Shown one piece after another: positions 3,779 through 46,380 of a stretch of 64,000 bases of DNA (within the stretch, counting starts at the first letter, position 1; every line of letters starts with the position of its first letter). The stretch comes from a virus. The translations under genes were made by a program, and so were the position numbers. The stretch is from the IMG/VR virus record IMGVR_UViG_3300045988_175974; one strand, given 5' to 3'. A model generated the notes under the pieces. The model ran no database searches, was not told the origin of the DNA, and worked only from the letters and a program-made list of their open reading frames with translations.

Positions 3779-3815
3779 CAAAGATAAAGGTTTTTGCGGT
3801 TTTAAGGGGGACAAA
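3779..3815 (-). promoter_or_regulatory. Late-type promoter P1 (tail fibre)
   Basis: Minus strand: TTTGTCCCCC-N20-TATCTTTG. The gap between TTTG and TAnnTTTG is exactly 25 nt. Confidence 0.7.
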
Positions 3816-3960
3816 AAAGCTTTTGCCCTTTCAGGGCGCATTGATGCTGCTGCCATTACCCAGGGTGTTACCCTGGGCTAGGAGCTGCTGCCCCTTCAGG
3901 GCGTATAGACGACGATAAGGGCAGCAGGGCGTATAGGCGATGATAGGACTGCAGGGCGTG
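3815..3960 (-). repeat. Triple-hairpin element, copy A (extended with extra CAGGGCGT units)
   Basis: AAAAGCTTTT + GCCCTttcAGGGC (3825-3837) ... CCCAGGGtgttaCCCTGGG (3859-3877) CTAGGAGCTGCTG ccccttcagggcg, then two or three further cagggcgt units up to 3960. Confidence 0.9.
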
Positions 3961-3964
3961 CTGG

Positions 3965-5014
3965 CTAGAGGTAGGGACTTCCGTTGATGTCGAGCTTGGC
4001 TGTGAAGGAAACAGAGTACATATTCTGCGTGGTATTATCGCTGATCGTTATCTCGTCCTCCTGGGTGATGGTGCAGGAGAGCCAGGTATCTTTTACCTTC
4101 AGCCAGACGTGCTCACTCATCAGAAACTCGTGAAGGTACCAGTAGAGCCAGGCGGTATCGAGGGGGTCGCTCTGATAAAGCCACGACTCACGGTTATTCT
4201 GCTTCTTGATAGCGGACCGGGAGAAGGTATTGAAGGTTTCCTGCACGGCTATTGTATAAGGGGTGGTTTCTACCGAAAGCTTCTTGCTGTAGGCTTTCGG
4301 GATATTGATGCTCTCCAGGCAGCCACGGGCATTGATGAAGCGGAAGGTACTGCGGGTTTCGGCTTCCGAGGATGGCAGAGCATAGAGGGCGTGACCGCCA
4401 ATAGTCTGCGAGCCTTCCTTTGTGATTTTCTGTTCGGAAGAGGTAGGAGCGGTGAGTGCGGTGCTGGATGCCAATATCTGTGAAGAGACATAGGAGACTG
4501 GGTAGGAGAAGGATTCGCCTACAACGGTGACTTCGGGGATAGAAGTTGGCTTTCGGGAGAAGTCTTTTACTGCTGGGGATGGATTGGATAGAATGCGCTC
4601 CATATCCGACATGGCTCCTGCTATGCAGCGAAGGTCAGTATCGGTACCTGCGACAGGCTTCTGGGGATAATAGACCTCGCCTACACCGGTATGCACTTCG
4701 CCGTTTTTGTTCATATACTCATCGTAGGCTTTTATGTACCATCTTACGAGCGGGAAGGTTTTTGTGGTGGCGGTGTACGGGAAATTGTCGAGAGGGATGC
4801 GGAGTGCAGAGGAGACATCCAGGGCTACGTTATTGCCTTCGGTGGTGACGGGTACCGTGAGCTTCACGGTTTCGTAGCTTCCTCCGTTATCAAAGTTTAC
4901 TTCTATGATGACACGGTGGAAGGAGGGGCTATCCAGCGTTTCGGGCTGGATGGTGAAGGTGATGGGGTTTCCGGCAAAAATGGAACCCGATGTGAGATTA
5001 ATTTTCTTTGCCAT
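3965..5014 (-). CDS. Hypothetical protein (349 aa), last gene of the KS-ACP operon
   Basis: Track ORF. Its ATG lies 1 nt after the ACP stop, so it is translationally coupled. No catalytic motif recognised. The C-terminus is beta-rich and aromatic-rich. Confidence 0.6.
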   Translation of the reverse strand: MAKKINLTSGSIFAGNPITFTIQPETLDSPSFHRVIIEVNFDNGGSYETVKLTVPVTTEGNNVALDVSSALRIPLDNFPYTATTKTFPLVRWYIKAYDEYMNKNGEVHTGVGEVYYPQKPVAGTDTDLRCIAGAMSDMERILSNPSPAVKDFSRKPTSIPEVTVVGESFSYPVSYVSSQILASSTALTAPTSSEQKITKEGSQTIGGHALYALPSSEAETRSTFRFINARGCLESINIPKAYSKKLSVETTPYTIAVQETFNTFSRSAIKKQNNRESWLYQSDPLDTAWLYWYLHEFLMSEHVWLKVKDTWLSCTITQEDEITISDNTTQNMYSVSFTAKLDINGSPYL

Positions 5015-5015
5015 A

Positions 5016-5261
5016 TTATTCTTTCTTTTTAATTACGAGATTGGCTATATCCGAAACAAGCTTGCAATCTTTCGCCTCTTCGGGGGTAATCTTGATGTGG
5101 AACATCATTTCTACCTGCTGAATGAGATCGAGGAAATCGATGGATTCTAGCTGAACCTCATCACGAAGATTGGAAGAGGGAGTTACCTCGTGGTTGACCC
5201 ATGAGGTTTTCAGTCTGTTTACGATGGCGATAATGCGAGGAGTTATTTCTTCTTTTTTCAT
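5016..5261 (-). CDS. Acyl carrier protein
   Basis: 81 aa and acidic. VQLESIDFLDLIQQVEMMF matches the ACP helix-2 phosphopantetheinyl-serine context (D/E-S-[LI]-D). It starts 2 nt after the KS stop. Confidence 0.8.
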   Translation of the reverse strand: MKKEEITPRIIAIVNRLKTSWVNHEVTPSSNLRDEVQLESIDFLDLIQQVEMMFHIKITPEEAKDCKLVSDIANLVIKKKE

Positions 5262-5263
5262 AA

Positions 5264-6466
5264 CTATGCTTTTGAGATGATAAAGGATGAATTGGTACCG
5301 CCAAAACCGAAGGCGTTACAGAGAATATGGTGAGGTGCATAGAGCTTCGGGCGCATCACCAGATTGAGGGATGGGAAGGCATTCTCCTCGGTCGTTACCG
5401 CGCCAAAGAGACTGCCGTAGGTGAGCATCATCACGGCTTGCACGGCTTGCGATACGCCTGCCATCCAACACTCATGACCGGTTAAGCCTTTCGTGGCTAC
5501 TACGTTCGGACAGATAGGAAAAATCCTTGTGATGGCGTTGGCTTCGGCTTCATCTCCCATTGGGGTACCGGTGGCGTGAGCGAGAACGACATCTATCATA
5601 CCTTCGTCCAATCCTGCGTTCTCAATGGCGTGAAGCATGGATACTTCCTCCTGATAGGTATCGGGGGTAGTGATGGCTTTTCCATTAGACGAGAAACCAT
5701 AGCCGGAAAGAGAAGCGAAGGAATGCACTTTCTCTTCTTTCAGACGAAAGCTATCCGATGGTTCGAGGATGATACAGGCTGCGCCACCTGATGGTGCCAA
5801 TCCGTTTCTACCTTTGCCAAACGGCTGCACCTTATCGGGTGAGAAGACACCGAGGGCATCGAATGCTTCCATGCAGTATTGAGATCCGCATTCCTGCGCG
5901 CCAATCACGATTACCATTTCCGTCTGCTTGCTATTGAGAAGCATCTTGGCAAGACCAATAGCGTGACCTCCTCCGGCACATGCTGCGCTTACGGTAAGCG
6001 ATAAGCCGTGGATATGAAGGATAGATGCCAGGTTCATACTGATAGTGGAGTTGAGCGAACGGAACAATGTTTCTACAGACAATGTTCTGTTATGTACTCC
6101 ATAGCCTATATGATTCACCACCGACCGACTTTCGTAGCATTCAGAATCATTACTTACGATAATAGACACGTTGTGATTTTCAAGAAAATCCTTACTAATT
6201 TTTGCTTCTTTTAAAGCTTCAAATACTGCATCGAGTACATAAAAGCCATGAAGGGGCAGGCATGCTCTCTGCGCACGAGTGAGAATTTCGTTATATTCTT
6301 CTACCCAAACAGGCACATTGCCGCATAAATCGGAATTGTATTTATCGCGGCATTCGTCGTGATGCAATCCGCATTTACCCTTATAAAGGTTCATGGCTAC
6401 TTCTCTGGTACTTCTGCCTAGGGCAGAATGAATACCTGTTCCGGTAATTAATATCTTTTTATCCAT
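5264..6466 (-). CDS. Beta-ketoacyl-ACP synthase, KAS I/II (FabB/FabF) type
   Basis: 400 aa. Active-site Cys in VSAACAGGGHAIG, His in LAHATGTPMGD, second His in KGLTGHECWMAG, and a C-terminal NAFGFGGTNSSFII. Confidence 0.9.
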   Translation of the reverse strand: MDKKILITGTGIHSALGRSTREVAMNLYKGKCGLHHDECRDKYNSDLCGNVPVWVEEYNEILTRAQRACLPLHGFYVLDAVFEALKEAKISKDFLENHNVSIIVSNDSECYESRSVVNHIGYGVHNRTLSVETLFRSLNSTISMNLASILHIHGLSLTVSAACAGGGHAIGLAKMLLNSKQTEMVIVIGAQECGSQYCMEAFDALGVFSPDKVQPFGKGRNGLAPSGGAACIILEPSDSFRLKEEKVHSFASLSGYGFSSNGKAITTPDTYQEEVSMLHAIENAGLDEGMIDVVLAHATGTPMGDEAEANAITRIFPICPNVVATKGLTGHECWMAGVSQAVQAVMMLTYGSLFGAVTTEENAFPSLNLVMRPKLYAPHHILCNAFGFGGTNSSFIISKA

Positions 6467-6509
6467 TTTATTATTCTTTTTATGTTATAAAACATATTTT
6501 TTTTATCTG

Positions 6510-6598
6510 AAAGCTTTTGCCCTTACAGGGCGACATAAACCACATTCCATATACCCAGGGTGTTGCCCTGGGCTAGGAGCTTCTGCCTTTACAGGGCG
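6510..6598 (-). repeat. Triple-hairpin element, copy B
   Basis: AAAGCTTTT + GCCCTtacAGGGC (6519-6531) ... CCCAGGGtgttgCCCTGGG (6554-6572) CTAGGAGCTTCTG cctttacagggcg. It overlaps the last codons of the 949-aa gene. Confidence 0.9.
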
Positions 6599-9438
6599 TA
6601 CACAGTTAACTCTACTTCGCCCATACCCGTCTTGGCATCAATGGTGGTATTCACCTTGTCAATGAGGCATTTCATACCGCCTATGTTCCACCAATCCTGC
6701 CAGTGATTCGGTATATCGGCAACTTGTGCTACGGTGGTGGTGCATCTTACCATGAACTTCTTTCTGTTCAGAAGGAAGTAGGCGTAGGGAAGAATGAAGG
6801 TGTCAAAGAGGCCGCGAGAGCGGATTTTAGTCACTACCTTGCCGTTCTCATCTACTTCATCGGCATTGCAGAGTACCAAATCCTTATACTTCGGATCTTT
6901 TAGCCACGATGGTTCCTTGAAGGCTCGTATCTTCAGAGAAAAACGCTCACCATCACCTACACCTTCCTGCACACCGTTATAATCAAACACGTTGCCCATC
7001 ATATCCAGCGAGTCGCAAGCTAGGGCATACTTACCCGATACGGTGCGCCATTTGGAGGTTCCGAAATGATCGTAGTTGTAATCGTAAGACTGTCGGGTAG
7101 CATCGCTACCACCGCCACGCATCAATGCAACCGCAAAGCCCCATCGTGAATCATCCTGCAACGGAGAATTGCCATCATCGGTATCCGACGGGTCGTAGCT
7201 TTCTACAAGCGATAGGGTTTGCTGCATATAAAAATCGCAGAAAGCAGTGGAAATAGTCTGATTGATAATCTGCTCAACAAACTCATGCTCCATATCCTCA
7301 TCTACATAAGCGCAGAGAATAGGCTGACTATCGGCAATGGTTACACCATATTTCTTGCCGTTATAGGAGTCGATTGCCTCGTGAGAGCCATAGGCAGCCT
7401 CTATCTCTTTGAAATAATTGACATCATTAAACGGAACAGGAGTAAAATCTACCGAAATATCGTGAACGAAATCTTCGTTTTCATCACTGCAATCTCCATA
7501 TTCCACACCCTTGAACTGGCCTACCTCAAAGAGTACCGGTTTCAAGTCGGCTGTCGTGGTTGCATCACTATTCACCTTTACGCGATAAGCGTTGCCAGTC
7601 TTGCGGTCGATATAGCAGTGCTTATCTCCACTACTCAGATTATGGAAGAAATCGATGTAGTCGAGATTATAGACGGTGGAGTTATCGCCACTATCAGGCG
7701 CAGGGTAATCGATGTAATCGTAATCGGTAGAATAACCCATATTCTTGTTTTTGCGGCTATCGAGCACATTCTGCCGCTGATCTTTTGCGTCGCTCTCTGC
7801 CGAATAGCGCATACGTACACCGGTAATCTTTTCGGTCATCGGGACCATGGAGTGGATATTGGCATGGAAAGTTCTCGCCTCGTTGCCGCTCTTGCGTAAC
7901 ACATCACGGGTAAGGTAAGCTGTTACCTTCTTCTGTTCGTAATCATACGAAAACTTGATACCAAAGGCGCTTTCAAGTGAAGAGATAACGGAACTTACGC
8001 TCTCATCAGGGAAATTGCCGCTGTTGGCTACCATATTGAGTACGTTTGCCTGCACCTTGAACTTGCTGATTTTTGCCTCGATGCTGATACCAGTGACCTT
8101 GCCGCCATCATCACGAACCTCGCCAACCTGTATATGCTCGGTGGTGCCTTCGGGTGTGTGGAGTGTTAATTCCTGCACGTCCTTATTCTCTGCCTTCACG
8201 ATGTTTATCTTTCCGCCGCAACCACGGCTTTCCAGCCATGAATTGATATGCTCCTGACTTTGAAAATAACCCGTCTTGATTTCGCCAGCTTTCTTCTTCT
8301 TGGCGATGACTTCGGCATCGTCTTTTCGATAATAAGTGCCATGGTGAGTGTGAAGACCAGGTTGTTTTGCACCCGTAGGGTCTTCCTCGTCGTACTGGTA
8401 GCTGACAGTATCGTAACTGCATACGGTCGTGAAGAAGCAGAGATGCTTCAAATCCTCTATCTCCATCAATGCCTTCTTGTCGAAAGTTACGCCCAGATAG
8501 GCAAAAAGGCAATCGAGGAAATAGAGCACATAGAAGCAGATACCCGACTGCGGACGTTTTGCATCCAATACCCAGTAAGGATAAAGGTCTTCGTTCGTCC
8601 AGGTGCAATCTTTTATGCTGATTACATCACTTGCGGTCTTTCCGTCATCATCTAACCCGTGATGCTTATAGCAGATACGAGCGTTACAATAGGTAGCGGC
8701 TCTGCCTGCACCATCTGTTTCACCATAAGCTGCTGCGGTATTGATATAATTGCCATTGCTGGCAATGACTGGCTCATTTACCTTGTGATTCTGAGGATAA
8801 GAACGCTCTGAAAGCTTCCGTGCATCACCCATATAATGCTGGGTAGATGTAGAAGTGTATTCATTGCAGCTTGCAGGGTAGGAAAAACCTAAGGCTTGCG
8901 GTTCCAAGACCTTGCTTACGCTTACATGGTCTGCCCTAATTTCGTGGTTTTCCGTATGATCATGCTTATGCTTGCCTCCAGTAACAAATACATCTACCTT
9001 TACTACCGGATCACTTTCAATATCCACCCTTACGTTTCCTATCTTCTCGCCGATGATAATCTGGTCCTTCACCGGAATATCTCGGCACTGCAGGTCGCTG
9101 ATAAGCTCGCTGAAACTCTGCGTGCTGGCATCGATATTCATGCTGAGTGAATTGGTTATTTCCTCACCATCCTGCATAACCAGGGTACCGCTGCGGAAAG
9201 GCAGTCCGTCGGCATTGATACGAGTAGGCAGGTGCTCCATGTTGACGGCTCTTACCGCCGCATGCACGTCCTCAATGTTCTTTACCAGCCAACGGTTGCC
9301 GTCTAGCGGAATGGAAAATGGATAGGAGAACATTTCCGTATCGTTGAATACCGGATTCTGATCCTCTATATCTATAGAGAAATCATCGGGCAGAGCCACC
9401 GGCTTATCTTTGATTAATATAGAGAGATGCGAGTTCAT
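6589..9438 (-). CDS. Large virion protein (949 aa), baseplate/tail-tip candidate
   Basis: Track ORF with a 4-nt ATGA overlap with the upstream gene. Function is inferred from size and position only. Confidence 0.5.
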   Translation of the reverse strand: MNSHLSILIKDKPVALPDDFSIDIEDQNPVFNDTEMFSYPFSIPLDGNRWLVKNIEDVHAAVRAVNMEHLPTRINADGLPFRSGTLVMQDGEEITNSLSMNIDASTQSFSELISDLQCRDIPVKDQIIIGEKIGNVRVDIESDPVVKVDVFVTGGKHKHDHTENHEIRADHVSVSKVLEPQALGFSYPASCNEYTSTSTQHYMGDARKLSERSYPQNHKVNEPVIASNGNYINTAAAYGETDGAGRAATYCNARICYKHHGLDDDGKTASDVISIKDCTWTNEDLYPYWVLDAKRPQSGICFYVLYFLDCLFAYLGVTFDKKALMEIEDLKHLCFFTTVCSYDTVSYQYDEEDPTGAKQPGLHTHHGTYYRKDDAEVIAKKKKAGEIKTGYFQSQEHINSWLESRGCGGKINIVKAENKDVQELTLHTPEGTTEHIQVGEVRDDGGKVTGISIEAKISKFKVQANVLNMVANSGNFPDESVSSVISSLESAFGIKFSYDYEQKKVTAYLTRDVLRKSGNEARTFHANIHSMVPMTEKITGVRMRYSAESDAKDQRQNVLDSRKNKNMGYSTDYDYIDYPAPDSGDNSTVYNLDYIDFFHNLSSGDKHCYIDRKTGNAYRVKVNSDATTTADLKPVLFEVGQFKGVEYGDCSDENEDFVHDISVDFTPVPFNDVNYFKEIEAAYGSHEAIDSYNGKKYGVTIADSQPILCAYVDEDMEHEFVEQIINQTISTAFCDFYMQQTLSLVESYDPSDTDDGNSPLQDDSRWGFAVALMRGGGSDATRQSYDYNYDHFGTSKWRTVSGKYALACDSLDMMGNVFDYNGVQEGVGDGERFSLKIRAFKEPSWLKDPKYKDLVLCNADEVDENGKVVTKIRSRGLFDTFILPYAYFLLNRKKFMVRCTTTVAQVADIPNHWQDWWNIGGMKCLIDKVNTTIDAKTGMGEVELTVYAL

Positions 9439-10088
9439 TTTCTGATTTCTATTTTTGCGTTATCGTATAAGTCTATGAGGCGATGGGTAAAGGTGTCGAT
9501 GAGCGCCGTACCAAAGGCATTGATTTTTTGGTGCCCATAGTCGTGAAGGGTGCCATCGGTAATGAAGACTACACTCTGGTCGTAGCTCTCTGCCTCGTTG
9601 CAAGTTACCATGTGGGCATAGTTTCGGGCGATGCCGTAACCTGCCTTGATGGTTGCCTTGCTGCCATTCAACAACTCTATCTTGCAGCCTTCATTCATTA
9701 CGAGGGCGGTAGCGGCATTATGGAGGATGACGTGCGCCTTACCAAGGACGTATATCTTTCGGGAAGAGTAGAGGTGGATTTCCTCGTCGGTATCACCCAC
9801 AAGGACGGTACCTGTAGGCGAGTCTTCATTATAGAAGATTCCACCCAGGTTAATATCTGCCTTAAACTCCGGATATACTGCCCTGAAAGCATCGATTACC
9901 TGCTGCGGTACCTCGGTGATTAAGCCGTGCCAATATTTGCGCCATGCCTCGCACATCTCGGGAATGCTCTGCGTGCTCTTGAAAGCATGCTGGGATTCCT
10001 GGCAGTTGCCACTCTGGGCAAGGATATGGACGCAAAGGGTCTTGAAACGCTGCGTGCGCTGTTCGGGGGTTTCTTTATTCTTTGTCAT
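9435..10088 (-). CDS. Hypothetical protein (217 aa)
   Basis: Track ORF on the coding strand, overlapping its neighbour by 4 nt. Confidence 0.55.
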   Translation of the reverse strand: MTKNKETPEQRTQRFKTLCVHILAQSGNCQESQHAFKSTQSIPEMCEAWRKYWHGLITEVPQQVIDAFRAVYPEFKADINLGGIFYNEDSPTGTVLVGDTDEEIHLYSSRKIYVLGKAHVILHNAATALVMNEGCKIELLNGSKATIKAGYGIARNYAHMVTCNEAESYDQSVVFITDGTLHDYGHQKINAFGTALIDTFTHRLIDLYDNAKIEIRK

Positions 10089-10092
10089 TTTT

Positions 10093-11208
10093 TTATGCTT
10101 CGGCTTCCTCTTTGGCTTCTTCTATAGTTTTTGTGAGAATAGCTTCATAGCCAGCAAGCTCCTCTTCGGTCACGATGTCAGAGTAATCCTGGCGAAGTTG
10201 GTCTATGCGCTCCTTGATGCCTTTCACTCTCGTCTGGGTAGATAGCTTATCCTTGCGAAGGATATACTTGATGCGGGCATCGGCTTCAGCCTTGTGCTTG
10301 GCGGCTGCATCACGGGCTGCTTTTACTTCCGGACGGTCGTTGGCAATCTTCTCGGCTACCTGCTCGGCAAAACGAGGGTCACGAGACAGCGCCTTCTCAA
10401 AGAATGGCTTAAACTGGGTGCGGAGAGTCTGAGGGTCGATGGTGAAGGCCTTCTTTGCGTAAGCGATGTATTCAGGGTCTCCAGTCTTCTCGCTCAGTCT
10501 CAGATAGCATTCGCCCATCTCTCTATCTACAGCCTTAAAGATTTCCGGAAGAATATCGCTTTCGATTTCTACGGCTCTTGTGGCTAGTTCGGCAATCTCA
10601 GCCTCGGTATAGATGGCGCTTTTACCCTGCGAGATAGCTTTCTCGTTGGCTTCTGCCATGGTCTTCGCATGCTCTGCCTTGCTTGCCATTTCACTACGGA
10701 GGTCACGCACGGTGTTCACCTGCTCCTGAAGGGCAGTAGAGAGGAACGGACGCAACTGCATCAGGTTGGGCATGGTAGCAGCGATACTTTCGCCGTTAGG
10801 GTTGGCTACGATACCATTATAGGTAAGCGGCTGTACGGTGGTGTCCGGTTTCAGATTAGGGAAGAGAGACTGCTTCGCCTCTTCCATGGCTTTCTTTTTC
10901 TGAAGTTCGGCATAGGCTTCCTGTTCCTGTTTGGTTGGGCGACCTACACGTCGCTTGTCGGCAGCAGATGATGATGCAGCGTTGGCTTGAGAGCTGCTGT
11001 AGCTATTCAGATAGGCGATCATCTGTCGGGTACGGCGATGATAGTCTTTAAACTTACGTGAGTTCTCGATAAACGAGTGTGCATTACTTGCACCTTCCAG
11101 GAGAGACAATCCCTGCTCATAGGCATCTTTCTGCTCCTGGGTAAGCATTCTTGCACCGATGGCAGGTTTCAAAATGTTGATGATTTCCTGTAATGATAAA
11201 TTTTCCAT
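10093..11208 (-). CDS. Hypothetical coiled-coil protein (371 aa)
   Basis: Track ORF with long Ala/Glu/Lys-rich helical segments. Confidence 0.55.
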   Translation of the reverse strand: MENLSLQEIINILKPAIGARMLTQEQKDAYEQGLSLLEGASNAHSFIENSRKFKDYHRRTRQMIAYLNSYSSSQANAASSSAADKRRVGRPTKQEQEAYAELQKKKAMEEAKQSLFPNLKPDTTVQPLTYNGIVANPNGESIAATMPNLMQLRPFLSTALQEQVNTVRDLRSEMASKAEHAKTMAEANEKAISQGKSAIYTEAEIAELATRAVEIESDILPEIFKAVDREMGECYLRLSEKTGDPEYIAYAKKAFTIDPQTLRTQFKPFFEKALSRDPRFAEQVAEKIANDRPEVKAARDAAAKHKAEADARIKYILRKDKLSTQTRVKGIKERIDQLRQDYSDIVTEEELAGYEAILTKTIEEAKEEAEA

Positions 11209-11250
11209 AAATCCTTATTTTTGTTGTTTATTTGAAAATTACGAATATTT

Positions 11251-12411
11251 TTAGCACAGAATAGGGGTTACGAAGATACGAGAACCTTTTTGGTTGTTGT
11301 CGTAGCCTTCGCTGCCGCCCTTGTCATTCGATGATGAAGCACTGGAGGCGTTACTCGTCGATGAGGAGGAGCCGCCTTCTGTGGCGCTATCAGCTTTGGC
11401 TGCATCGAGTTTCGCTTGCGCTTCGGCTTCCTCTTTCTTCAGCAACCGATGAATGCTTTCCCTTACGGTAATGGCATCATTGTGCGCGGTGGAGCGGGTA
11501 AGCTTATCGAAACTGATAACTGATGTACGCTCCTTGAGATAGGCAGCTACAAGTTGACGTGCCTTCTTCAGCATCTTGTCGTTCTCGTCGGCCTGCAAGA
11601 GACGAGGAATAAAATCTTCGCCAAACGCTTCTTCCAGATATTCGCTCTGAATAAAAAGCATATCAGGGATGAGACGGACGAACTTATCTCTGTTGCCGTA
11701 AATATCGAGATACGGCTGTAAAGACTCGCAAGTAGGGAAAAGCAAATCACGATGGTAGTAGTAGTACTTACTTTCCTGCCAGAGGGTTACGATTTTCTCT
11801 ATCGCCTCATGCTGCTTCTTCTCGGCTTCGGCTGCATCATCTTTGCCGCTATCTGTTCCTTCATCTGTTCCTTCGGATGAGGAACCTTGGTTGCTGCCAT
11901 CTGAAGGAGTACTGCCCTCTGCACCATCGCCCGCTGCCCCGATAGGCATAGGTGTATTCACTTCCTTTGCCCATCCCTCCAAGAGGGAAAGCAGGTTATT
12001 GAGCGAGGTCATTGCCGACTGGCGGTAGCTTTCCTTGCCCTGCGCTATCTGCTTGTCGGTAGCTACGGCATAGTCGTTGCTGGAGGCTACGTTGATACCG
12101 GAGCCATTGACAGAGAGCGCTTGCTTCTCGATGTTCTGCGCCATCGCATCATTTACAATCATGCGCTGGGCATAAAGCAGAAGCTCATTCCAGGGGTCGT
12201 TGACGTAGGTACCATCAGCAACCGCATCGCAGAAGATTAAGGGTTCTATGCTCGCATACTGCTTGCAGAGACGGTCGTATAGGGATGCTCCCAGGCGAGG
12301 CTTCAAGAAGTCCTTTTCGCTATTGTCGAGCATACCCTGCAGGTTGGCTACCTCGTCCACGGCATTGCTGGGGAGGTGGAGCCTGAGTTCTTGATTCGTG
12401 AAGAGTATCAT
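11251..12411 (-). CDS. Hypothetical protein (386 aa) with acidic Ser/Gly-rich insertions
   Basis: Track ORF immediately downstream of the portal candidate. Confidence 0.55.
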   Translation of the reverse strand: MILFTNQELRLHLPSNAVDEVANLQGMLDNSEKDFLKPRLGASLYDRLCKQYASIEPLIFCDAVADGTYVNDPWNELLLYAQRMIVNDAMAQNIEKQALSVNGSGINVASSNDYAVATDKQIAQGKESYRQSAMTSLNNLLSLLEGWAKEVNTPMPIGAAGDGAEGSTPSDGSNQGSSSEGTDEGTDSGKDDAAEAEKKQHEAIEKIVTLWQESKYYYYHRDLLFPTCESLQPYLDIYGNRDKFVRLIPDMLFIQSEYLEEAFGEDFIPRLLQADENDKMLKKARQLVAAYLKERTSVISFDKLTRSTAHNDAITVRESIHRLLKKEEAEAQAKLDAAKADSATEGGSSSSTSNASSASSSNDKGGSEGYDNNQKGSRIFVTPILC

Positions 12412-12440
12412 TTTTTTTGCTTTTACGTTATTATATATGG

Positions 12441-12473
12441 GCCCAGCGATAGAATCGCTGGGAACGGGGGCGG
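12441..12473 (-). repeat. Hairpin element copy 1
   Basis: Plus strand gCCCAGCGATagaATCGCTGGGaacgggggcggg. It starts right after the portal stop and lies 30 nt upstream of the ATG at 12411. Confidence 0.95.
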
Positions 12474-12474
12474 G

Positions 12475-14178
12475 TTAAGAGGCTTCTTGTTTCGCCACTC
12501 CGGTCTTCGAGTTATCGAGGGTGGTTAATACCTCTCGGTCTATCTGCCACACCAGGTGCTCGTCCCAATCGTTGAATCGGCTCAAAACTTCCAATGGGCG
12601 TATCATCAACTGCTGCAATGGGGCAAACTGAATCTGTTTTACCAGGAAACGTTCTCTCAGGTCGGTACCGCCCGATGATGCCGTATCGCCAGGAGTATTA
12701 CCGATGAGCTTTGCATCAAGACCCATGGCAAAGAAAATAATACTACTTATTTCCTGCAACTCGGTTTTGTCGGCATTCGCCTGATCATTTGCCTTGGTTT
12801 CGATTTCCACGATTTCCCAAGCTTTGTGCTCTTTCCCATCGCTGCCCGTGAAGGCAGAGGAAATGAGCGCCTGACCTGCATTATCGGGATTGGCGAGCCA
12901 TGTATTGATAGAGGTGAAGATTTCGTTCTGAATCTCACCATGGGTTTTCTTTTTCTTCTCACCCTGCTGCTGATAGAGCCTGCTAATATAGTCCTGGTGG
13001 ATATAGATGACACGACCGATGATGTTGCTGTTGCGCTTCCGGGTGAGGCGATCATCTACGATGGTGAAGGCATACTCAAAAATGCTGCCGGCAAAGATGG
13101 AGTGCCAAAGGGCATCGGCATAGTATGGACCGCCGAAATCTCTTGGTGACATGATGAAGCGGGTAGGGCGTTTCTTGCGGCTTACCTGCTTCTGACGTGC
13201 CTCACGGATATTGCGCTGCAAATCCTTTACGGCTGATGTGGTAGGGAGATAAGGGATAGCCGCTATCTTGCGGTCTTCCTCTTTCTGCACGCCGACGTAT
13301 TGGGTAGGGTCGAGCCACTGATTGCTGACGTAGGCATAGTTGATGCGGTAGTTCTCGTCCATGCGCTCCAGTCGGGTAGTGAAGATGCTGCGATGCTTCA
13401 GACCGATTACCTTCGGGGTCCATTGGGCAGTAGGAACAGCTTTGCCGCTTTCGTCGAGGGAACGCTGATTGAGCTGAAGTTCTACAAAGCATTGTGACAT
13501 CAAAGCCATATCTCCTGCCAAATCGAGGAAGGTCTGCATCAGGTCGTTGTTTTCGATGAAATCGCGAACCTGGGCATTGGTTTCTTCCCATTTGTGGAGG
13601 GCTTCTTTCAGAGATTTCATCTCCTCGCTTTCCTCTTCCTTGGCTTTCAGGTCAGCTATCTGACCACGGAGCAGGACTCCTGCACTCTCGTAGGGGATAT
13701 ATTTCTCTGTGATGTTGCCGCCAACGTACTGGGTGTAATGATACTTGGCTGCGGGACCGCGACCTACCAGTATTTTCTTGATGTAATCTACTCCTGCTGC
13801 TGTGAAAGGCGACATGCGCGAGAGCATCCAGATAAGGTTTGGCAGTCGGTTGGCCATACCCCATTCCATAAAGCCTAAGCCTTCGGTACCTACGCCTTTT
13901 GGTTTGCCCAGGTTCTCGCCGCCACTTGATGCAAAGATAGTGGAAACCTGCTGCCGTGCTGCGGAACCGCCTGCGTCGCCACCACTTGCCGACATACCGG
14001 CTGTGGTTAGGAGCATGCCGTGAACGTAGTCGTTCCAGGAAAAGACTTTACCGCCGCCATTTTTAAGCGGCGTAAAGGCATCCGGGCGAACGGCTACATA
14101 GCCTGCATCTTTCAGTTCCTCACTACGATTTTGGAGCTGCTGCAGGTTGGTTACTCTGTTTTTGTTTTTGCTTGCCAT
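12475..14178 (-). CDS. Portal protein candidate (567 aa)
   Basis: The size fits. It has its own late promoter. The C-terminal segment LIGNTPGDTASSGGTDLRERFLVKQIQFAPLQQ resembles portal wing/crown regions. Not verifiable without an HMM search. Confidence 0.5.
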   Translation of the reverse strand: MASKNKNRVTNLQQLQNRSEELKDAGYVAVRPDAFTPLKNGGGKVFSWNDYVHGMLLTTAGMSASGGDAGGSAARQQVSTIFASSGGENLGKPKGVGTEGLGFMEWGMANRLPNLIWMLSRMSPFTAAGVDYIKKILVGRGPAAKYHYTQYVGGNITEKYIPYESAGVLLRGQIADLKAKEEESEEMKSLKEALHKWEETNAQVRDFIENNDLMQTFLDLAGDMALMSQCFVELQLNQRSLDESGKAVPTAQWTPKVIGLKHRSIFTTRLERMDENYRINYAYVSNQWLDPTQYVGVQKEEDRKIAAIPYLPTTSAVKDLQRNIREARQKQVSRKKRPTRFIMSPRDFGGPYYADALWHSIFAGSIFEYAFTIVDDRLTRKRNSNIIGRVIYIHQDYISRLYQQQGEKKKKTHGEIQNEIFTSINTWLANPDNAGQALISSAFTGSDGKEHKAWEIVEIETKANDQANADKTELQEISSIIFFAMGLDAKLIGNTPGDTASSGGTDLRERFLVKQIQFAPLQQLMIRPLEVLSRFNDWDEHLVWQIDREVLTTLDNSKTGVAKQEAS

Positions 14179-14272
14179 TTTTGCGTTTCTTTTTATATGT
14201 TATCCTGAATGTGATTGAAAGAGAGAATGGTGGCGATATACGCACACCCGCTTTTTCTCTTGTTTCTGAGTG

Positions 14273-14309
14273 TAAAGTTAGGGCTTTTTATGGTTTTAGT
14301 GGGGACAAA
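14273..14309 (-). promoter_or_regulatory. Late-type promoter P2 (portal)
   Basis: TTTGTCCCCA-N20-TAACTTTA, 25-nt gap. Strongly similar to P1 across the spacer (TAAAACC..AAAAA). Confidence 0.65.
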
Positions 14310-14317
14310 GAGGGGAT

Positions 14318-14350
14318 GGGACCAGCGATAGAATCGCTGGGAACGGATGC
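14318..14350 (-). repeat. Hairpin element copy 2
   Basis: gggaCCAGCGATagaATCGCTGGgaacggatgc. It sits 12 nt upstream of the TTTG of the portal promoter. Confidence 0.95.
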
Positions 14351-14358
14351 TCCTCTTC

Positions 14359-14517
14359 TTATTCATAATTGATAATGATCATAAAATCCTTGGCGATGGA
14401 GGAAATAGCGTTACTGATACTTTCTCCGATTTCAAGCCTTTGGGAGTGAGGGTTGGAGTACCAATCACCATCGGCTCTGCCTCTGCTTGCGCAGGTTCTT
14501 ATTCGTATTGCTGCCAT
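14359..14517 (-). CDS. Small ORF (52 aa)
   Basis: Hand-translated (MAAIRIRTCASRGRADGDWYSNPHSQ...NYE*). It falls below the 60-aa cut-off of the track. Confidence 0.3.
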   Translation of the reverse strand: MAAIRIRTCASRGRADGDWYSNPHSQRLEIGESISNAISSIAKDFMIIINYE

Positions 14518-14550
14518 AAAAGATTATCTTTTGTTACGGTGGAAATGCAG

Positions 14551-14682
14551 TTACTCCAGGGGGTAAGGGCTTGGGCGATGATACTTATCCTTATAACGAC
14601 AACCGCCTCTGTCGCCGTGTATCTTGCGATATGCCTTCGCTTCCTCAGTTCGATAGTGGGTGATGATGGCTTGCTTAATCAT
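14551..14682 (-). CDS. Small ORF (43 aa), MIK-family paralog
   Basis: Hand-translated (MIKQAIITHYRTEEAKAYRKIHGDRGGCRY...). It shares MIK..AI.H..RTE.AK..RK with the next ORF. Confidence 0.4.
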   Translation of the reverse strand: MIKQAIITHYRTEEAKAYRKIHGDRGGCRYKDKYHRPSPYPLE

Positions 14683-14685
14683 ATT

Positions 14686-14862
14686 TTATTCATAACTAAA
14701 GGCAAGGAGATTGTCCTTTGTATGGAAGGTGCCGATACACTGCATCAAGAAGCTGTCACGAAAAAAGATGGTTTTATCCCGATAATCGTTGGTGCCGGTT
14801 TGCTTACGTACTTCCTTGGCGTGCTCTGTTCTCGCCTCGTGAATGGCTAATATCTTAATCAT
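14686..14862 (-). CDS. Small ORF (58 aa), MIK-family paralog
   Basis: Hand-translated (MIKILAIHEARTEHAKEVRKQTGTNDYRDK...SYE*). Confidence 0.4.
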   Translation of the reverse strand: MIKILAIHEARTEHAKEVRKQTGTNDYRDKTIFFRDSFLMQCIGTFHTKDNLLAFSYE

Positions 14863-14956
14863 ATTCTATTAATACGAAAGGTGGCATATCATTAGGATCA
14901 TCCTCCTCCTCTTCGTGAGGAGGAATGCTGCCTTTATCTATTATAACCTTATTCAT
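14855..14956 (-). CDS. Small acidic ORF (33 aa)
   Basis: Hand-translated (MNKVIIDKGSIPPHEEEEDDPNDMPPFVLIEYD*). Its stop overlaps the next start (ATGATTAA). Confidence 0.3.
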   Translation of the reverse strand: MNKVIIDKGSIPPHEEEEDDPNDMPPFVLIEYD

Positions 14957-15092
14957 ACTCTGTTAATATTGCCGCAGCCTTCGTCTGCGAGTTTGTATTT
15001 GGAAGGATATTCGACTCTCCATCCTTGGAGTAGTGAGCCGTGATAACATTCAGAATACCAGGAGGAGTGTTGATTGTTATGATGCTAACCAT
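14949..15092 (-). CDS. Small ORF (47 aa)
   Basis: Hand-translated (MVSIITINTPPGILNVITAHYSKDGESN...EYE*). Its stop overlaps the next start (TATGAATAA). Confidence 0.3.
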   Translation of the reverse strand: MVSIITINTPPGILNVITAHYSKDGESNILPNTNSQTKAAAILTEYE

Positions 15093-15243
15093 ACTTTCTA
15101 ATCATACTCTAATAATATTTTCGGTTTATCTACATCATGCCCTTTGCCCCCTCCACATAGGCATAAAGCGATACCTTTCGGGTGAACAATTATGCCGTTT
15201 TGGGATGGACTATAAGAGCCAAGGATGATAGGACGATTACAAA

Positions 15244-16542
15244 TCATTTCTTCTCCAAAAACTGATGATACATACTTTCCAACTTAGGATTTGAGAACTT
15301 GCCGTTTTCTTTCCAATCGTTGAACAACGTCATTACGTCGGTATGGATGGAAGAAAGCTTTTCCTGCATCTCTTTCGGAGTGTGGTACCAAAGATGCGAC
15401 TCTTTCGTGAAGAGGGTGAGGATGGCTTTCAATGCCATGGCGTTCTCATGGCTCGGCTCTATCTCAAACTGATGGAAGACGCAGGTGTCTTTATCGTTTG
15501 CCTGAAGGAACTTGCTGACGGCTTCATCTTTCAGGAAGAACCTTATATCTACTTCTTCCTGCAACACATCTTCCAACTTTCTCTTCAGCGGAATAGGGTC
15601 TGGGAACTGATAATCGAAGGCTACATCTTTTCTCATTGAGAGACAGAAAACACGGTCACGGTTCTGCGGAACACCATAGTCTTTGGCATTGAGGCGTGCC
15701 CATCGGCTTACGTAGCCGAGAGAAGAGAGTTTATCAAGCCACTTCTGAAAATCGGGCATAAACTTTTCGCTTACCAGGGCTGCCACGTTCTCCTGGAGCA
15801 GATACTTCGGACGCAAAACTTCTACGGCATCGGCTACTCTCCACAATAATGCCGAGCGGGTATCGGAGCCTTCCTTCAAGCCCATCTGCTTGCCGGCTTG
15901 CGATATATCCTGACAAGGTGAGGAATAGGTGAAAAGGTCGATTCCTTGCCCCCCCACATTATTCTTTACCTGTTGCCAGTCGATTTTGGTTATATCGCCC
16001 AAGGCTTTGTCAGCAAACTGCGGAAAGATAAGGTCGTGCATCTGACAGGCGTATTTGTCTATATCGCTCCAGCCTACACATGTCCAACGGAAATCAGGAT
16101 GCTGCTGGGCAAGGACATCGGCTGCCATGAGCTGCGAGTCATAACCGGAGAAGGTGGTGAGAATAAGTTTTTCACCGTGGTTCTTATCTACCGGATAGGG
16201 TGGAAGTTGGTCTTTTGGGAAGAAATCGGCAAAGAAAGAGGTCTGCGTCTCACGCTTTGGCTCTTTCGGATACCAGAGTTGCTGATAGATGGCTGCGAGC
16301 ACATCTACCACGATGGAGTTACCTGCTTGCTTGTATTGCTGACTGGCTGATACTGCCATATCTTCTGCCTTTCCCTTGCTCTTATAGCCAGCTACTCGCT
16401 CGGCTGCCTGGGCATTGGTACTCTGCATCGTGCGAATTACATCATCTCGCACACCCATCAATCGGAAACACTCGAAAGGTGTCAGCTTTCGGATGGCATA
16501 AGACTTAATGGTTTTATCCTTGAAATTGAACTTTGTTATCAT
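15244..16542 (-). CDS. DNA (cytosine-5) methyltransferase, circularly permuted motif order
   Basis: Motif IX (RKLTPFECFRLMG) and motif X (QAGNSIVV) lie at the N-terminus. They are followed by I (TTFSGYDS), IV (SSPCQDIS), VI (QENV) and VIII (VPQNRDRVF). Confidence 0.85.
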   Translation of the reverse strand: MITKFNFKDKTIKSYAIRKLTPFECFRLMGVRDDVIRTMQSTNAQAAERVAGYKSKGKAEDMAVSASQQYKQAGNSIVVDVLAAIYQQLWYPKEPKRETQTSFFADFFPKDQLPPYPVDKNHGEKLILTTFSGYDSQLMAADVLAQQHPDFRWTCVGWSDIDKYACQMHDLIFPQFADKALGDITKIDWQQVKNNVGGQGIDLFTYSSPCQDISQAGKQMGLKEGSDTRSALLWRVADAVEVLRPKYLLQENVAALVSEKFMPDFQKWLDKLSSLGYVSRWARLNAKDYGVPQNRDRVFCLSMRKDVAFDYQFPDPIPLKRKLEDVLQEEVDIRFFLKDEAVSKFLQANDKDTCVFHQFEIEPSHENAMALKAILTLFTKESHLWYHTPKEMQEKLSSIHTDVMTLFNDWKENGKFSNPKLESMYHQFLEKK

Positions 16543-16596
16543 TTTGTTTTGCTCTATAAATCGTTAATCAAAGGCTGTTGTCTAACCATATACAAA

Positions 16597-16968
16597 TCAA
16601 GAGAACGAGTCAGGCTCCAAATTGGCAATATAACAATAACGCTGCACGTCGTTTTCGCTAATGAACATTTGCCAATTCTGTTCGTCGTGGGAGAAATGTT
16701 CATGCACAAAATGAGTGCCATCGCGTCGCCAACAAAGAAGCGACCCTATGCAATGCGGTTTCTCTCTGGCTGGGTGCAACAGTTGAACAATGTTGCGATA
16801 TTCTGCTGTTTCATTCACTTCTTCATCACAAAGGGACACATTTTTGACGCTTATGCCATTTGCTTCATTCTCAAGACAAACTACATCTTCTGTTGTCTGA
16901 CTTTCTATCATTTCAAGAGCCTTTGATGATAAGAATATCACGTTAGGCAGTCTGTTGTTTCTTTCCAT
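16597..16968 (-). CDS. Hypothetical protein (123 aa)
   Basis: Track ORF on the coding strand. Confidence 0.5.
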   Translation of the reverse strand: MERNNRLPNVIFLSSKALEMIESQTTEDVVCLENEANGISVKNVSLCDEEVNETAEYRNIVQLLHPAREKPHCIGSLLCWRRDGTHFVHEHFSHDEQNWQMFISENDVQRYCYIANLEPDSFS

Positions 16969-16990
16969 AATCTTATTGTTTTTATAATCA

Positions 16991-18097
16991 TTATTTCCCT
17001 CTCCTCATCTTTTCCATTTCCTCATTCTCTTTCGACAACCTTTCCAGGTGTTCGAGAACCAGGGAATAGGATTGAGTGTTGACCTGATCTTCTGTTAGGC
17101 CGGCATACTTTTGCATCGTAGCGGTGGTGGCGGTGTAGATTTCCATCGGGGTTTGCAGCTTCTTATTATCTACCTTCTGCACCTTGAATACATGAGGGTA
17201 GCGATGGGCTAGGGTGTGCATGATGCCACTCCACCAGAAGAGGATAACCTGCCAGTTGGCTTCCGGATATTTGACGAAATAACCTGCGTTCTCGGTAAAC
17301 TGCTTTGACTCGTAATGAAAATCGTATTTCGTGATGCCTGTTGTCGGGTCGACGTACTGGGTGGTGGTGTTGAAGATGGTGGCAAGGAACATGTTTCTGG
17401 CACTGGCTACACTCTGGGCTTGCGTCTGGAGTTGTTCCTCGGTGAACTTATTCATCTGCTTCATCTTTACCAGATTATTGCTTAACTTAGTGTAGGTCTG
17501 CATCATATCACTGGCAAAACGGTATTGCTGCCAGGAGAAGCCATCGAGGTCTTGGTGCGGACCTTGGAAGGCTTTTGCACGACGGTACCACTTGGTTTTC
17601 TGCCGGATAGATGGATAGGGGAAGCGGGTGAGGAAATTACCGCTATCTGCATCCAGCCAGTCGAGAAGACCTGCGCCCTGAGCGATGTACTCAGGGGAGG
17701 TCTTATCATCGGTCTTGGCTTTCGAGGAGAGCCAATAGTTGAGCTGCCAGAGATAGAGGGGGAAGGGGATAGCCGATTGGGTACCAGCGATAGAATCGCT
17801 GGGAACAGGGGTACAGATGGTGAGGAGCTTCTTCAGGAGGCTCTTCTTCTGCGGCTCTATGCTTACCAGGTAGTGCTGCTCATTGATGGGCAGACGAGGG
17901 TCGGGGTAGGCATTGATGCTTATCCCCGCAAAAAGGAAGAAAACGGCTATCTTCACCTTCTGCATATCGAAGGGGTGATAGCGGTCTGCCTTGGATTTCT
18001 CTATCTGCTCCAGCATGATGAGGGCAATCTGCTCTAGCTGGGAAGGGGTGCATTGGTTCCAGCCCTTTGGAATTGTAAGATTTATTTGTTCTTGCAT
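16991..18097 (-). CDS. Hypothetical protein (368 aa), carries an in-frame hairpin element
   Basis: Track ORF. Hairpin copy 3 is translated as TPVPSDSIAGT in mid-protein. Confidence 0.55.
   Translation of the reverse strand: MQEQINLTIPKGWNQCTPSQLEQIALIMLEQIEKSKADRYHPFDMQKVKIAVFFLFAGISINAYPDPRLPINEQHYLVSIEPQKKSLLKKLLTICTPVPSDSIAGTQSAIPFPLYLWQLNYWLSSKAKTDDKTSPEYIAQGAGLLDWLDADSGNFLTRFPYPSIRQKTKWYRRAKAFQGPHQDLDGFSWQQYRFASDMMQTYTKLSNNLVKMKQMNKFTEEQLQTQAQSVASARNMFLATIFNTTTQYVDPTTGITKYDFHYESKQFTENAGYFVKYPEANWQVILFWWSGIMHTLAHRYPHVFKVQKVDNKKLQTPMEIYTATTATMQKYAGLTEDQVNTQSYSLVLEHLERLSKENEEMEKMRRGK
17781..17811 (-). repeat. Hairpin element copy 3 (inside a CDS)
   Basis: gtaCCAGCGATagaATCGCTGGgaacagggg, translated as PVPSDSIAG. 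Confidence 0.95.
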
Positions 18098-18116
18098 ATT
18101 CTTAATTTTTAAAGGT

Positions 18117-18208
18117 AAAAAAGCTTTTGCCCTTACAGGGCGACTTACTGATTGCTATTATACCCAGGGTGCTGCCCTGGGCTAGGAGCTTCTGCCCTTT
18201 CAGGGCGT
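18117..18208 (-). repeat. Triple-hairpin element, copy C
   Basis: AAAAAAGCTTTT + GCCCTtacAGGGC (18129-18141) ... CCCAGGGtgctgCCCTGGG (18163-18181) CTAGGAGCTTCTG GCCCTttcAGGGC (18194-18206). Confidence 0.9.
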
Positions 18209-18240
18209 GTGGGGTTAAGGTTCTTTTTACCTTTTTACCT

Positions 18241-18855
18241 TTAGAACGGCAGGTCGCTGTTAGGATCATCGTAACCTGGCATTGATGAGTAATCATTGCC
18301 TCCATCTGCTGGCGGTACATAGGCGGTAGCGTTGCCAGCGGCTCCGTAGGCTTGCTGTGGGTACGTCTGCTGCTGGGCGGTAGGCTGTGGCTGATAGAGG
18401 CTGGCGATACGCTTATTCATGCGGGTGCGGATTGCCTTGAAGAGGTGAGAGTTCTCATCGTTGAAATCCTGATTTACGATGTCAGGGTCTTTCTCCTTAC
18501 TATACTCCTTTACCTGTTCTACGAGTTTCGGGAATGCTTTGGCTACTGCCTTGACGTACTCGGTGGAGAATGATATTTGCATTTCGTGGGTAGGCACACT
18601 TTTTTCGGTGTCGCCACGCTCGATATTACTCTGTCGAATCTTATTCTTGTACGAATCTTTAAAAGGTTCGATGTGAACTCTCAACTTAGCCACCTGTCTG
18701 TTAACATTATCTTTTTGATATGTCTCTATTCGAATTTCGTTTACATCGAGAGGAATGCAAACATAAGGACGCTTTGCATTCTTCTCATCGATACCTACTA
18801 AGACCTTTGCTCCATTCAGAGACAAAAGGTCAACATTTCCATTGTAAGAAGCCAT
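18241..18855 (-). CDS. SSB-like protein (204 aa)
   Basis: A Gln/Pro/Gly-rich linker is followed by an acidic C-terminal tip, DDPNSDLPF, like the bacterial SSB tip DDDIPF. The N-terminal domain was not recognised as a canonical OB fold by eye. Confidence 0.45.
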   Translation of the reverse strand: MASYNGNVDLLSLNGAKVLVGIDEKNAKRPYVCIPLDVNEIRIETYQKDNVNRQVAKLRVHIEPFKDSYKNKIRQSNIERGDTEKSVPTHEMQISFSTEYVKAVAKAFPKLVEQVKEYSKEKDPDIVNQDFNDENSHLFKAIRTRMNKRIASLYQPQPTAQQQTYPQQAYGAAGNATAYVPPADGGNDYSSMPGYDDPNSDLPF

Positions 18856-23725: not shown

Positions 23726-23760
23726 GGACCAGCGATGGAATCGCTGGGAACGGGGGCAGG
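23726..23760 (-). repeat. Hairpin element copy 4
   Basis: ggaCCAGCGATggaATCGCTGGgaacgggggcagg, directly after the capsid gene stop. Confidence 0.95.
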
Positions 23761-23768
23761 GGAGGGGG

Positions 23769-32834: not shown

Positions 32835-32868
32835 GAACCAGCGATGGAATTGCTGGGGACGGGGGCAC
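32835..32868 (-). repeat. Hairpin element copy 5
   Basis: gaaCCAGCGATggaATTGCTGGggacgggggcac (one C>T change in the 3' arm), ~130 nt upstream of the primase-like gene. Confidence 0.9.
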
Positions 32869-32870
32869 AG

Positions 32871-46350: not shown

Positions 46351-46380
46351 GGACCAGCGATAGAATCGCTGGGGACGGGA
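46351..46380 (-). repeat. Hairpin element copy 6
   Basis: ggaCCAGCGATagaATCGCTGGggacggga. It abuts the stop at 46381 and lies 49 nt upstream of the GNAT ATG. Confidence 0.95.

Follow-up and report, generated by a model that had tools for sequence, protein, structure and literature searches.

Introduction

Short GC-rich palindromes dispersed through the spacers between bacterial genes, as in Enterobacteria and Pseudomonas, are known as repetitive extragenic palindromic (REP) units and bacterial interspersed mosaic elements (BIMEs), which bind gyrase and IHF. Here, we describe a ~92-nt element with three hairpins that is present in three copies, A, B, and C, on the minus strand of 64,000 nucleotides of viral DNA (IMG/VR record IMGVR_UViG_3300045988_175974), a stretch to which we refer in its full length as the window. 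In our view, these copies probably represent a host-native, structured and dispersed intergenic repeat of the Segatella copri complex and other Prevotellaceae that resembles REP/BIME, BOX or ERIC elements or transposable elements of the miniature inverted-repeat type (MITEs) and was acquired by the phage.

Like REP units and BIMEs, the element is built from short GC-rich palindromic units, occurs in many dispersed copies and is conserved in both its sequence and its hairpins. It resides in the spacers at gene 3′ ends, between co-directional or convergent genes and often as inverted pairs (39 pairs in the host), and it is presumably transcribed together with the upstream gene, as they are. It differs from a single palindrome of 20–40 nt in being a three-hairpin module of 92 nt, which is extended by 25–30 nt on its 5′ side in the host. 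A small unit on its own is found only in the short form of the element, while the common form is the 92-nt composite. Furthermore, the element lacks a GTAG-type 5′ tetranucleotide and belongs to Bacteroidota.

MITE-like repeats common to viruses and their hosts have been surveyed across prokaryotes, and that survey includes Prevotella phages (bioRxiv 10.1101/2024.01.18.576219). Such viral MITEs (vMITEs), for example the Correia elements of Neisseria, share with our element that they are small non-coding repeats, near-identical in host and phage and present in several copies per phage; as with vMITEs, a genus-specific repeat of this kind can be used for host assignment. In contrast to MITEs, the ends of a single copy of the element are direct repeats of the palindromic unit rather than terminal inverted repeats, and inverted ends are found only in the tail-to-tail pairs of the host.

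Intergenic stem-loop cassettes of T4-type phages, the promoter early stem-loops (PeSLs), serve as homology patches for modular gene shuffling (PMC2839356, PMC4122927). The likeness lies in conserved intergenic stem-loops that are repeated along a phage genome and provide patches for exchange. However, PeSLs are the phage's own composites of promoter and terminator, whereas no promoter is evident in the element and the repeat stems from the host. No promoter-like match is specific to it, only three copies are present in 64 kb, and these are optional, all of which speaks against a PeSL-type cassette; a PeSL-like role in the window phage would better fit the phage's own hairpin, CCGTTCCCAGCGATTCTATCGCTGGTCC. 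The BOX elements of Streptococcus pneumoniae also combine conserved end modules with a variable middle, have stable predicted folds and are intergenic and dispersed without a known transposase. They are unrelated in sequence and vary in the number of boxB modules, whereas in our case it is the class of the middle segment that differs, and the whole can collapse to a single unit. In its behavior, the element is nearest to REP/BIME elements and to MITE-like virus/host repeats, and it is larger and more complex than REP.

Results

Three copies in the window

A first-pass annotation of the window, made without any database search, had placed three copies of a triple-hairpin element on the minus strand, and two approaches bear this out. 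The core GCTCCTAGCCCAGGG-N5-CCCTGGGTA matches exactly at positions 3857–3885, 6552–6580, and 18161–18189 (none expected in 64 kb as judged from 100 shuffles), and the flanking unit CGCCCTGNAAGGGCA occurs six times, twice per copy, versus an expectation of 0.35. For a covariance model, R1, we used 58 distinct copies taken from related contigs (alignment A2). When run over the whole 64-kb window with filters off, it returned exactly three copies with 101–106 bits (E ~1e-28), and the next-best score in the window was 12.7 bits. Since the genes around A, B, and C are all located on the minus strand, the three copies have the sense orientation.

All three are of the long form. Copy A (3816..3907, 101.2 bits) lies between the open reading frame (ORF) for a 349-aa protein (3965..5014) and a giant downstream ORF, and consists of a hairpin-1 unit (3889–3903), the core (3857–3885) and a hairpin-3 unit (3824–3838). 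Copy B (6510..6602, 101.5 bits) lies 43 nt before the start (6466) of a gene for a beta-ketoacyl synthase (KS), with its hairpin-1 unit at 6584–6598, the core at 6552–6580 and the hairpin-3 unit at 6518–6532. Copy C (18120..18211, 105.6 bits) is situated between the ORFs for a 204-aa (18241..18855) and a 368-aa protein (16991..18097); hairpin 1 (18194–18206) is followed by linker and hairpin 2 (18161–18189, stem-loop 18163–18181), the variable segment (18143–18160), hairpin 3 (18129–18141) and the tail AAAAGCTTTT (18119–18128).

Each copy contains the predicted two GCCCU/AGGGC hairpins on either side of a CCCAGGG/CCCUGGG hairpin. The proposed consensus held overall but not in all details: copy B has a damaged hairpin 1 (GCCCTGTAAAGGC), a U.G pair closes hairpin 1 in copy A, the loop of hairpin 3 in copy A reads GAA instead of GUA, and copy B ends with AAAAGCTTTC. 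The spacer given as N17–22 measures 18–19 nt in the three window copies. It was also thought to vary freely; instead, some 250 copies fall into a few recurrent classes. The overlap of copy B with the gene for a 949-aa protein (6589..9438) is real, as the hairpin-1 unit contributes both the final codons (…VYAL) and the stop, TAA, which falls in the loop of hairpin 1. The extra units seen at copy A correspond to an array of 27/28-nt tandem units (3897..3959, minus strand, 2.3 copies, each starting ACGCCCTG), two of which precede the copy. The array, in which the 5′ half of hairpin 1 is duplicated, lengthens copy A in the upstream direction, and its predicted fold contains a longer alternative hairpin, CUGCUGCCC...GGGGCAGCAG.

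Anatomy of the element

The basic unit is a hairpin plus a linker, CGCCCUGNAAGGGCARAAGCU. In the long form, a first unit is followed by CCUAG, the 7-bp hairpin CCCAGGG-N5-CCCUGGG, UA, a segment of 18–25 nt and a second unit that ends with GGGCAAAAGCUUU; each of the two outer hairpins lies within a 21-nt direct repeat, CGCCCTGNAAGGGCARAAGCT. The short form, seen in the phage loci L036, L049, L317, and L318, has one hairpin (13 nt) followed by AAAAGCTTT, and is the product expected from recombination between the two direct-repeat units of a copy. In a variant common to host and phage copies, a ~31-nt insertion enlarges the loop of hairpin 1 (GCCCTGA-ACCAACGGTCACCGGCCGAAGGGAAAGGTAA-AGGGC); it was found in the host loci L178 (1038–1160) and L134 (5459–5550) and in the phage loci L051, L057, L083, L085, and L069. 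The repeat also contains CCWGG and AAGCTT sites.

Occurrence in Prevotella chromosomes and origin of the phage copies

A REP-like nature had been among the options raised for the element, together with the proposal to look for the same unit in the host genome, and this option is supported. Bacterial contigs, one genome per species, were scanned with the unit pattern GCCCTGNAAGGGCARAAGCT, which occurred in at least 120 genome stretches; those listed are nearly all from Segatella copri, other Segatella/Prevotella species or Prevotellaceae metagenome-assembled genomes. Among the matches listed, each complete S. copri chromosome is represented by several loci, and R1 identified 169 copies in 100 host loci. 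The genes next to them encode, for example, a sigma-70 factor, a histidine kinase, a sigma-54 activator, an MFS transporter, a NUDIX protein, a DnaJ-like protein or UDP-glucose dehydrogenase, and these ordinary chromosomal neighbors indicate that the host loci are not prophages. In the 167-kb replicon of S. copri DSM 18205, four sites carry the element, none of them under an annotated gene.

The host elements lie 20–100 nt from gene ends in co-directional or convergent contexts, and divergent contexts were not encountered among ~64 sites (crude ORF map). Single copies between co-directional genes are sense in 19 and antisense in six cases. All 39 host pairs are tail-to-tail, mostly with a spacer of 25 nt, and because the “class 2” variable segment never occurs in both arms of a pair, a pair is an asymmetric composite. 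Sequence conservation in the host extends 25–30 nt upstream of hairpin 1 (…GAAGTTTCGCAAGT…CCACAC).

With a chromosomal copy of the host (L180:6947–7038), copy C shares 94.6% identity versus 84–86% with copies A and B, and A and B are 87% identical to host copies versus 83% to each other. As the similarity to host copies equals or exceeds that between the sibling copies, repeated uptake from the host pool fits better than duplication within the phage. Among phages, the core pattern was present in 98 IMG/VR contig stretches, mostly from 50–110-kb human gut contigs with one to three copies each. In the GenBank phage collection, the only holders of the element were seven unannotated fecal fragments; megablast matches to these at “query 15117–15210” were first suspected to be a tRNA and turned out to be the element itself.

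Conservation of the hairpins

The first-pass annotation had taken the conserved stems as a sign of a structured RNA or a protein-bound site and had advised a search with a covariance model in the host and in related phages. Once performed, this search revealed compensatory changes in the host copies for hairpins 1 and 2, which are thus maintained by changes on both sides of the stem. The phage copies are too similar to one another to show selection on structure. In the host copies, 98.8% of the stem cells are paired and double changes occur in 13 of the 18 stem pairs, with far lower values in the shuffle and slid controls; hairpin 3 was in part predetermined by the pattern used for the search. 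Most host copies have GCCCU/AGGGC as hairpin 1, which becomes GGGCU/AGCCC in 31, with GGCCU/AGGCC and GCCCC/GGGGC as further versions. Hairpin 2 changes from CCCAGGG/CCCUGGG to CCUAGGG/CCCUAGG, CAUAGGG/CCCUAUG or CCCAUGG/CCAUGGG. RNAalifold recovered hairpins 1 and 2 unaided.

Covariation of this kind is equally expected for palindromic protein sites, and the element could accordingly be a double-stranded DNA site whose three palindromes and AAGCTT tail would be recognized by a dimeric protein of the host or the phage; the fold of the RNA would then play no part. Candidates for such a protein include a nucleoid protein, a recombinase, a restriction-modification enzyme and, as at BIMEs, gyrase. 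Every conserved block is indeed a perfect or near-perfect palindrome, paired changes in half-sites would mimic covariation, and the sequence itself is conserved beyond the pairing. On the other hand, one-sided stem changes on the sense strand yield G.U in 35 and A.C in three cases (12 versus three when the closing pair of hairpin 1 is excluded), a bias that is meaningless for duplex DNA, and neither is the orientation bias relative to transcription explained by a duplex site. The G.U excess mildly favors a folded sense strand, be it RNA or single-stranded DNA, over a duplex protein site. We regard a duplex site as quite unlikely and infer that the element folds as a single strand in the sense orientation.

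Two long-range pairings were considered and dismissed. For pairing of the linker AGAAGCU with the tail AGCUUUU, there is no compensatory change, and six to ten cells are broken at two pairs. Cross-pairing of hairpins 1 and 3, as in the minimum-free-energy fold of copy C, is ruled out because copies in which hairpin 1 has switched to GGGC/GCCC retain GCCC/GGGC in hairpin 3. Folding energies by themselves are not decisive, with z values of −3.3, −1.4, and −2.7 for the sense strands of the three copies versus −0.8, −2.6, and −1.2 for the antisense strands.

Rfam (release 15) gave no match at the gathering threshold for the whole window, and neither a tRNA nor a tmRNA was found. The Acido-Lenti-1 RNA (RF01687) resembles the opposite strand of the element, with a 7-bp hairpin, CUA, a linker of ~12 nt and a 5-bp hairpin. 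The match reaches 27.4 bits (E 1e-4 in a 171-nt search) and thus stays under the gathering score of 37 bits; this RNA comes from other phyla and the match falls on the strand that is disfavored by the G.U evidence.

Optional presence in related phages

In related phages, the element is found at about a dozen different gene junctions. We read the 230 nt upstream of the homologues of the 368-aa gene in 80 loci, that is, the junction of copy C. Phages in which this gene is 90–96% identical show one of four arrangements: the spacer is all but missing (L265: TAG AAT ATG), it carries a different hairpin (CCAGCGATTCCATCGCTGG), it carries an unrelated long inverted-repeat element (TGTTGAATGTTGA…), or it carries the triple hairpin, sometimes directly behind a CCAGCG hairpin. 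The unrelated inverted repeat constitutes a third optional insert (L249, L241, L224, L232, etc.), in which TGTTGAATGTTGA units surround a GC-rich center (…GGCTAGCGCCCTTGAGTCCGTGAGGC…) ~120 nt upstream of the homologue of the 368-aa gene. The junction between the 949-aa gene (P949) and the KS gene, where copy B resides, is empty (…TATGCTTTATAA-CATAAAAA), occupied by the short form (…TACGCCCTGTAAGGGCAAAAGCTTTT) or the long form, or occupied by the phage's own hairpin, and the Y-A-L-stop residues are retained in all these states through synonymous codons. Presence and absence are thus polymorphic at orthologous sites of phage genomes. A comparison of filled and empty sites revealed no target-site duplication at the 204-aa/368-aa or the P949/KS junction.

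These observations bear on the suggestion that the element is a phage regulatory RNA, either an antitermination signal comparable to nut or put sites with a boxB-like hairpin (GCCCUGAAAGGGC) or a leader for downstream genes including those for KS and the acyl carrier protein (ACP). The boxB of lambda nutR, GCCCUGAAAAAGGGC, has the stem GCCCU/AGGGC and thus the same stem as hairpins 1 and 3, the GCUCCUAG linker behind the hairpin recalls boxA, and all three window copies are sense and just upstream of genes. Yet the loop has three nucleotides (GAA/GUA) or reads UGAAA and is not the GNRA-like pentaloop (GAAAA or GAAGA) that defines boxB; on the grounds of loop size and distribution, identity with a lambda boxB or nut site was rejected. 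An obligatory leader or antiterminator is contradicted by near-identical phages that have the same junctions without the element and by one phage locus type in which it is antisense. Moreover, the host chromosome accounts for the majority of copies, which are located at the 3′ ends of genes and often form inverted pairs, and another, truly phage-specific hairpin is present at about ten window junctions. The host distribution largely refutes a phage regulatory RNA, which we consider highly improbable.

The antisense locus type comprises L088 (1352–1444) and 16 similar cases (e.g., L060 and L074). Here, a 594-aa ORF takes its final ~24 residues and its TAG stop from the reverse complement of the element, which means that the repeat has replaced the C-terminus of the protein.

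A further possibility is a function as a host-type terminator or attenuator that would punctuate phage operons, with the polymerase stopping or pausing at hairpin 3 or the whole fold. Every site follows the end of a gene, divergent neighbors do not occur, and for the most part the element points the same way as the upstream gene, both for the single host copies (19 versus six) and for the phage instances (56 same/same plus 15 same/opposite of 107). Where gene ends converge, the element can be paired tail to tail (L003), and in the short form AAAAGCUUUU comes after a GC hairpin. Against this, six bases, AAAAGC, separate hairpin 3 from a T run of three to six, often just three, and no U tract begins 0–2 nt after any of the stems. 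A scan for sigma-70 promoters and intrinsic terminators, the counts of which equaled the shuffled expectation, did not call a terminator on the element. Near-identical phages furthermore do without the element at these junctions, tail-to-tail pairs are also found between co-directional genes (L036, L077), and the sequence is conserved far above what a terminator requires. The first-pass proposal of a terminator is therefore not upheld in its classical form, and we judge the wider idea of a host-type terminator or attenuator to be unlikely.

The KS-ACP region and exchange between phages

The region 5016–6466 (minus strand) of the window encodes a 400-aa KS, in which Pfam recognizes the N and C domains of ketoacyl-synt, and then an ACP of 81 aa. 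Copies B and A bracket KS, ACP, and the 349-aa gene (P349), which had led to the idea that the elements are recombination boundaries of a mobile KS-ACP cassette. KS, ACP, P349, and the giant gene were mapped by tblastn at the loci of homologues of the 949-aa gene. The order P949-KS-ACP-P349-giant is kept in 58 related loci, one of which is truncated and shows P949-KS only. The element is absent from 34 of them, present only at the first (left) junction in 15 and only at the second (right) in five, and present at both in three, as in the window, such that the junction of copy A is filled in just eight of the 58 loci. In 19 more distant phages KS and ACP are lacking and P349 stays next to P949. 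As these phages still have P349, the edges of the cassette do not coincide with element sites; its right edge lies between ACP and P349, a place free of the element. A boundary of the cassette as such is thereby refuted, and we hold this reading to be extremely unlikely.

The notion of a recombination boundary nevertheless survives in a more general sense. Clustering of the flanks and variable segments revealed four upstream types and two variable-segment types next to the region around the start of the 368-aa gene, one upstream type with two downstream types, and different variable segments between identical flanks. Truncated copies have their breakpoints inside hairpins. Reassortment and truncations together indicate that the element acts as a homology patch for exchange between phages.

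Other intergenic motifs and gene content

A second, much more common hairpin motif, CC(C)CGTTCCCAGCGATTCTATCGCTGGTCC, is present in the window in 10–11 copies, all on the gene strand (minus) and most of them right after stop codons (12441–12480, 14320–14359, 17782–17821, 23727–23766, 32836–32875, 46352–46391, 54202–54241, 56123–56162, 56932–56971, 59153–59192, and 63748–63787). Related phage loci contain it 102 times in 880 kb and host loci twice in 857 kb, and this distribution makes it look like an intergenic signal of the phage's own. Two copies, at 17784–17803 and 59155–59174, are located inside ORFs, where they read …PVPSDSIAG…. In related phages, the motif is found at triple-hairpin junctions or directly upstream of the triple hairpin. 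Tandem AAGGTAAAAAG / AGTAAAAAG units right after stop codons are another recurring motif of the lineage; they are present at 18212–18240 (minus strand) in the window and in L312, L315, L323, L341, L345, L278, and L289, and recur even where the neighboring protein is only 58–80% identical.

The window derives from a phage, as is apparent from a prohead-protease-like gene, a weak terminase match, genes for a DNA methyltransferase and a sliding-clamp-like protein, and the ACP/KS pair. The methyltransferase, a cytosine-type enzyme of 432 aa, is encoded at 15244–16542 (minus strand; PHROG 116, E 4e-64). PHROGs and Pfam provided almost no names for the neighboring phage genes, and most window proteins are without a family.

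Discussion

The picture that we favor for the triple-hairpin copies is that of a Prevotellaceae repeat carried by a phage. The phage lineage of the window, with genomes of ~100 kb, would have drawn its copies from the host pool on more than one occasion, and the presence of host-type repeats makes it most likely that this lineage infects S. copri. The copies are optional passengers that are tolerated in intercistronic spacers and spacers at gene 3′ ends. Because their conserved blocks are near-identical, they serve as crossover points, and exchange between copies would swap the flanking genes and the variable segment, while recombination between the two direct-repeat units within a copy would produce the one-hairpin short form. 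Spreading may proceed via a hairpin-recognizing or a recombinational route that leaves no target duplication. At the RNA level, the element may behave like REP units, as a barrier or attenuator at 3′ ends rather than as a classical terminator.

Several points weigh against this interpretation. The unpaired parts of the element, namely the AAGC…YAG linker, GGGUA, and GGGCAAAAGC, are conserved beyond the needs of a mere selfish repeat, which makes a partner that reads the sequence likely and hints at a specific protein or RNA. A single copy has neither terminal inverted repeats nor a target-site duplication and is therefore not a MITE in the strict sense. A transposase, RAYT or other mobilizing gene was not found linked to the element, although no systematic search was made. 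Six of the 25 single co-directional host copies and the one phage locus type with 17 instances have the element antisense to the genes. The covariation counts rest on an alignment that was fitted to the model, the same covariation would arise at palindromic protein sites, and any role at the RNA level is one that we infer.

The conserved unpaired motifs could instead belong to a functional single-stranded module of Prevotellaceae, in which three hairpins and invariant unpaired stretches are read by a dedicated protein. In one version, a hairpin-specific (HUH-type) transposition system would hop into replicating phage DNA during infection; in another, the phage would copy a host signal and exploit an RNA-processing or protection system that acts on 3′ untranslated regions. 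We see such a module as a rather improbable alternative; if it were true, the phage copies would record and mediate a direct exchange of DNA between S. copri and large phages.

We found no description of this repeat family in the literature searched, nor is it mentioned in a preprint on the S. copri transcriptome. A host-native repeat acquired by the phage, the reading that we prefer, would name the Segatella copri complex as the host of an uncultured lineage of ~100-kb gut phages whose proteins are mostly without a family, and would add an apparently undescribed family of structured repeats to a much-studied human gut commensal. It would also illustrate what a host repeat can bring about in a phage genome, that is, optional insertions, altered gene ends, as with copy B and the 949-aa gene, and crossover points for mosaicism. 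For the annotation of such genomes, it carries the warning that triple-hairpin copies are not to be taken for phage regulatory signals.

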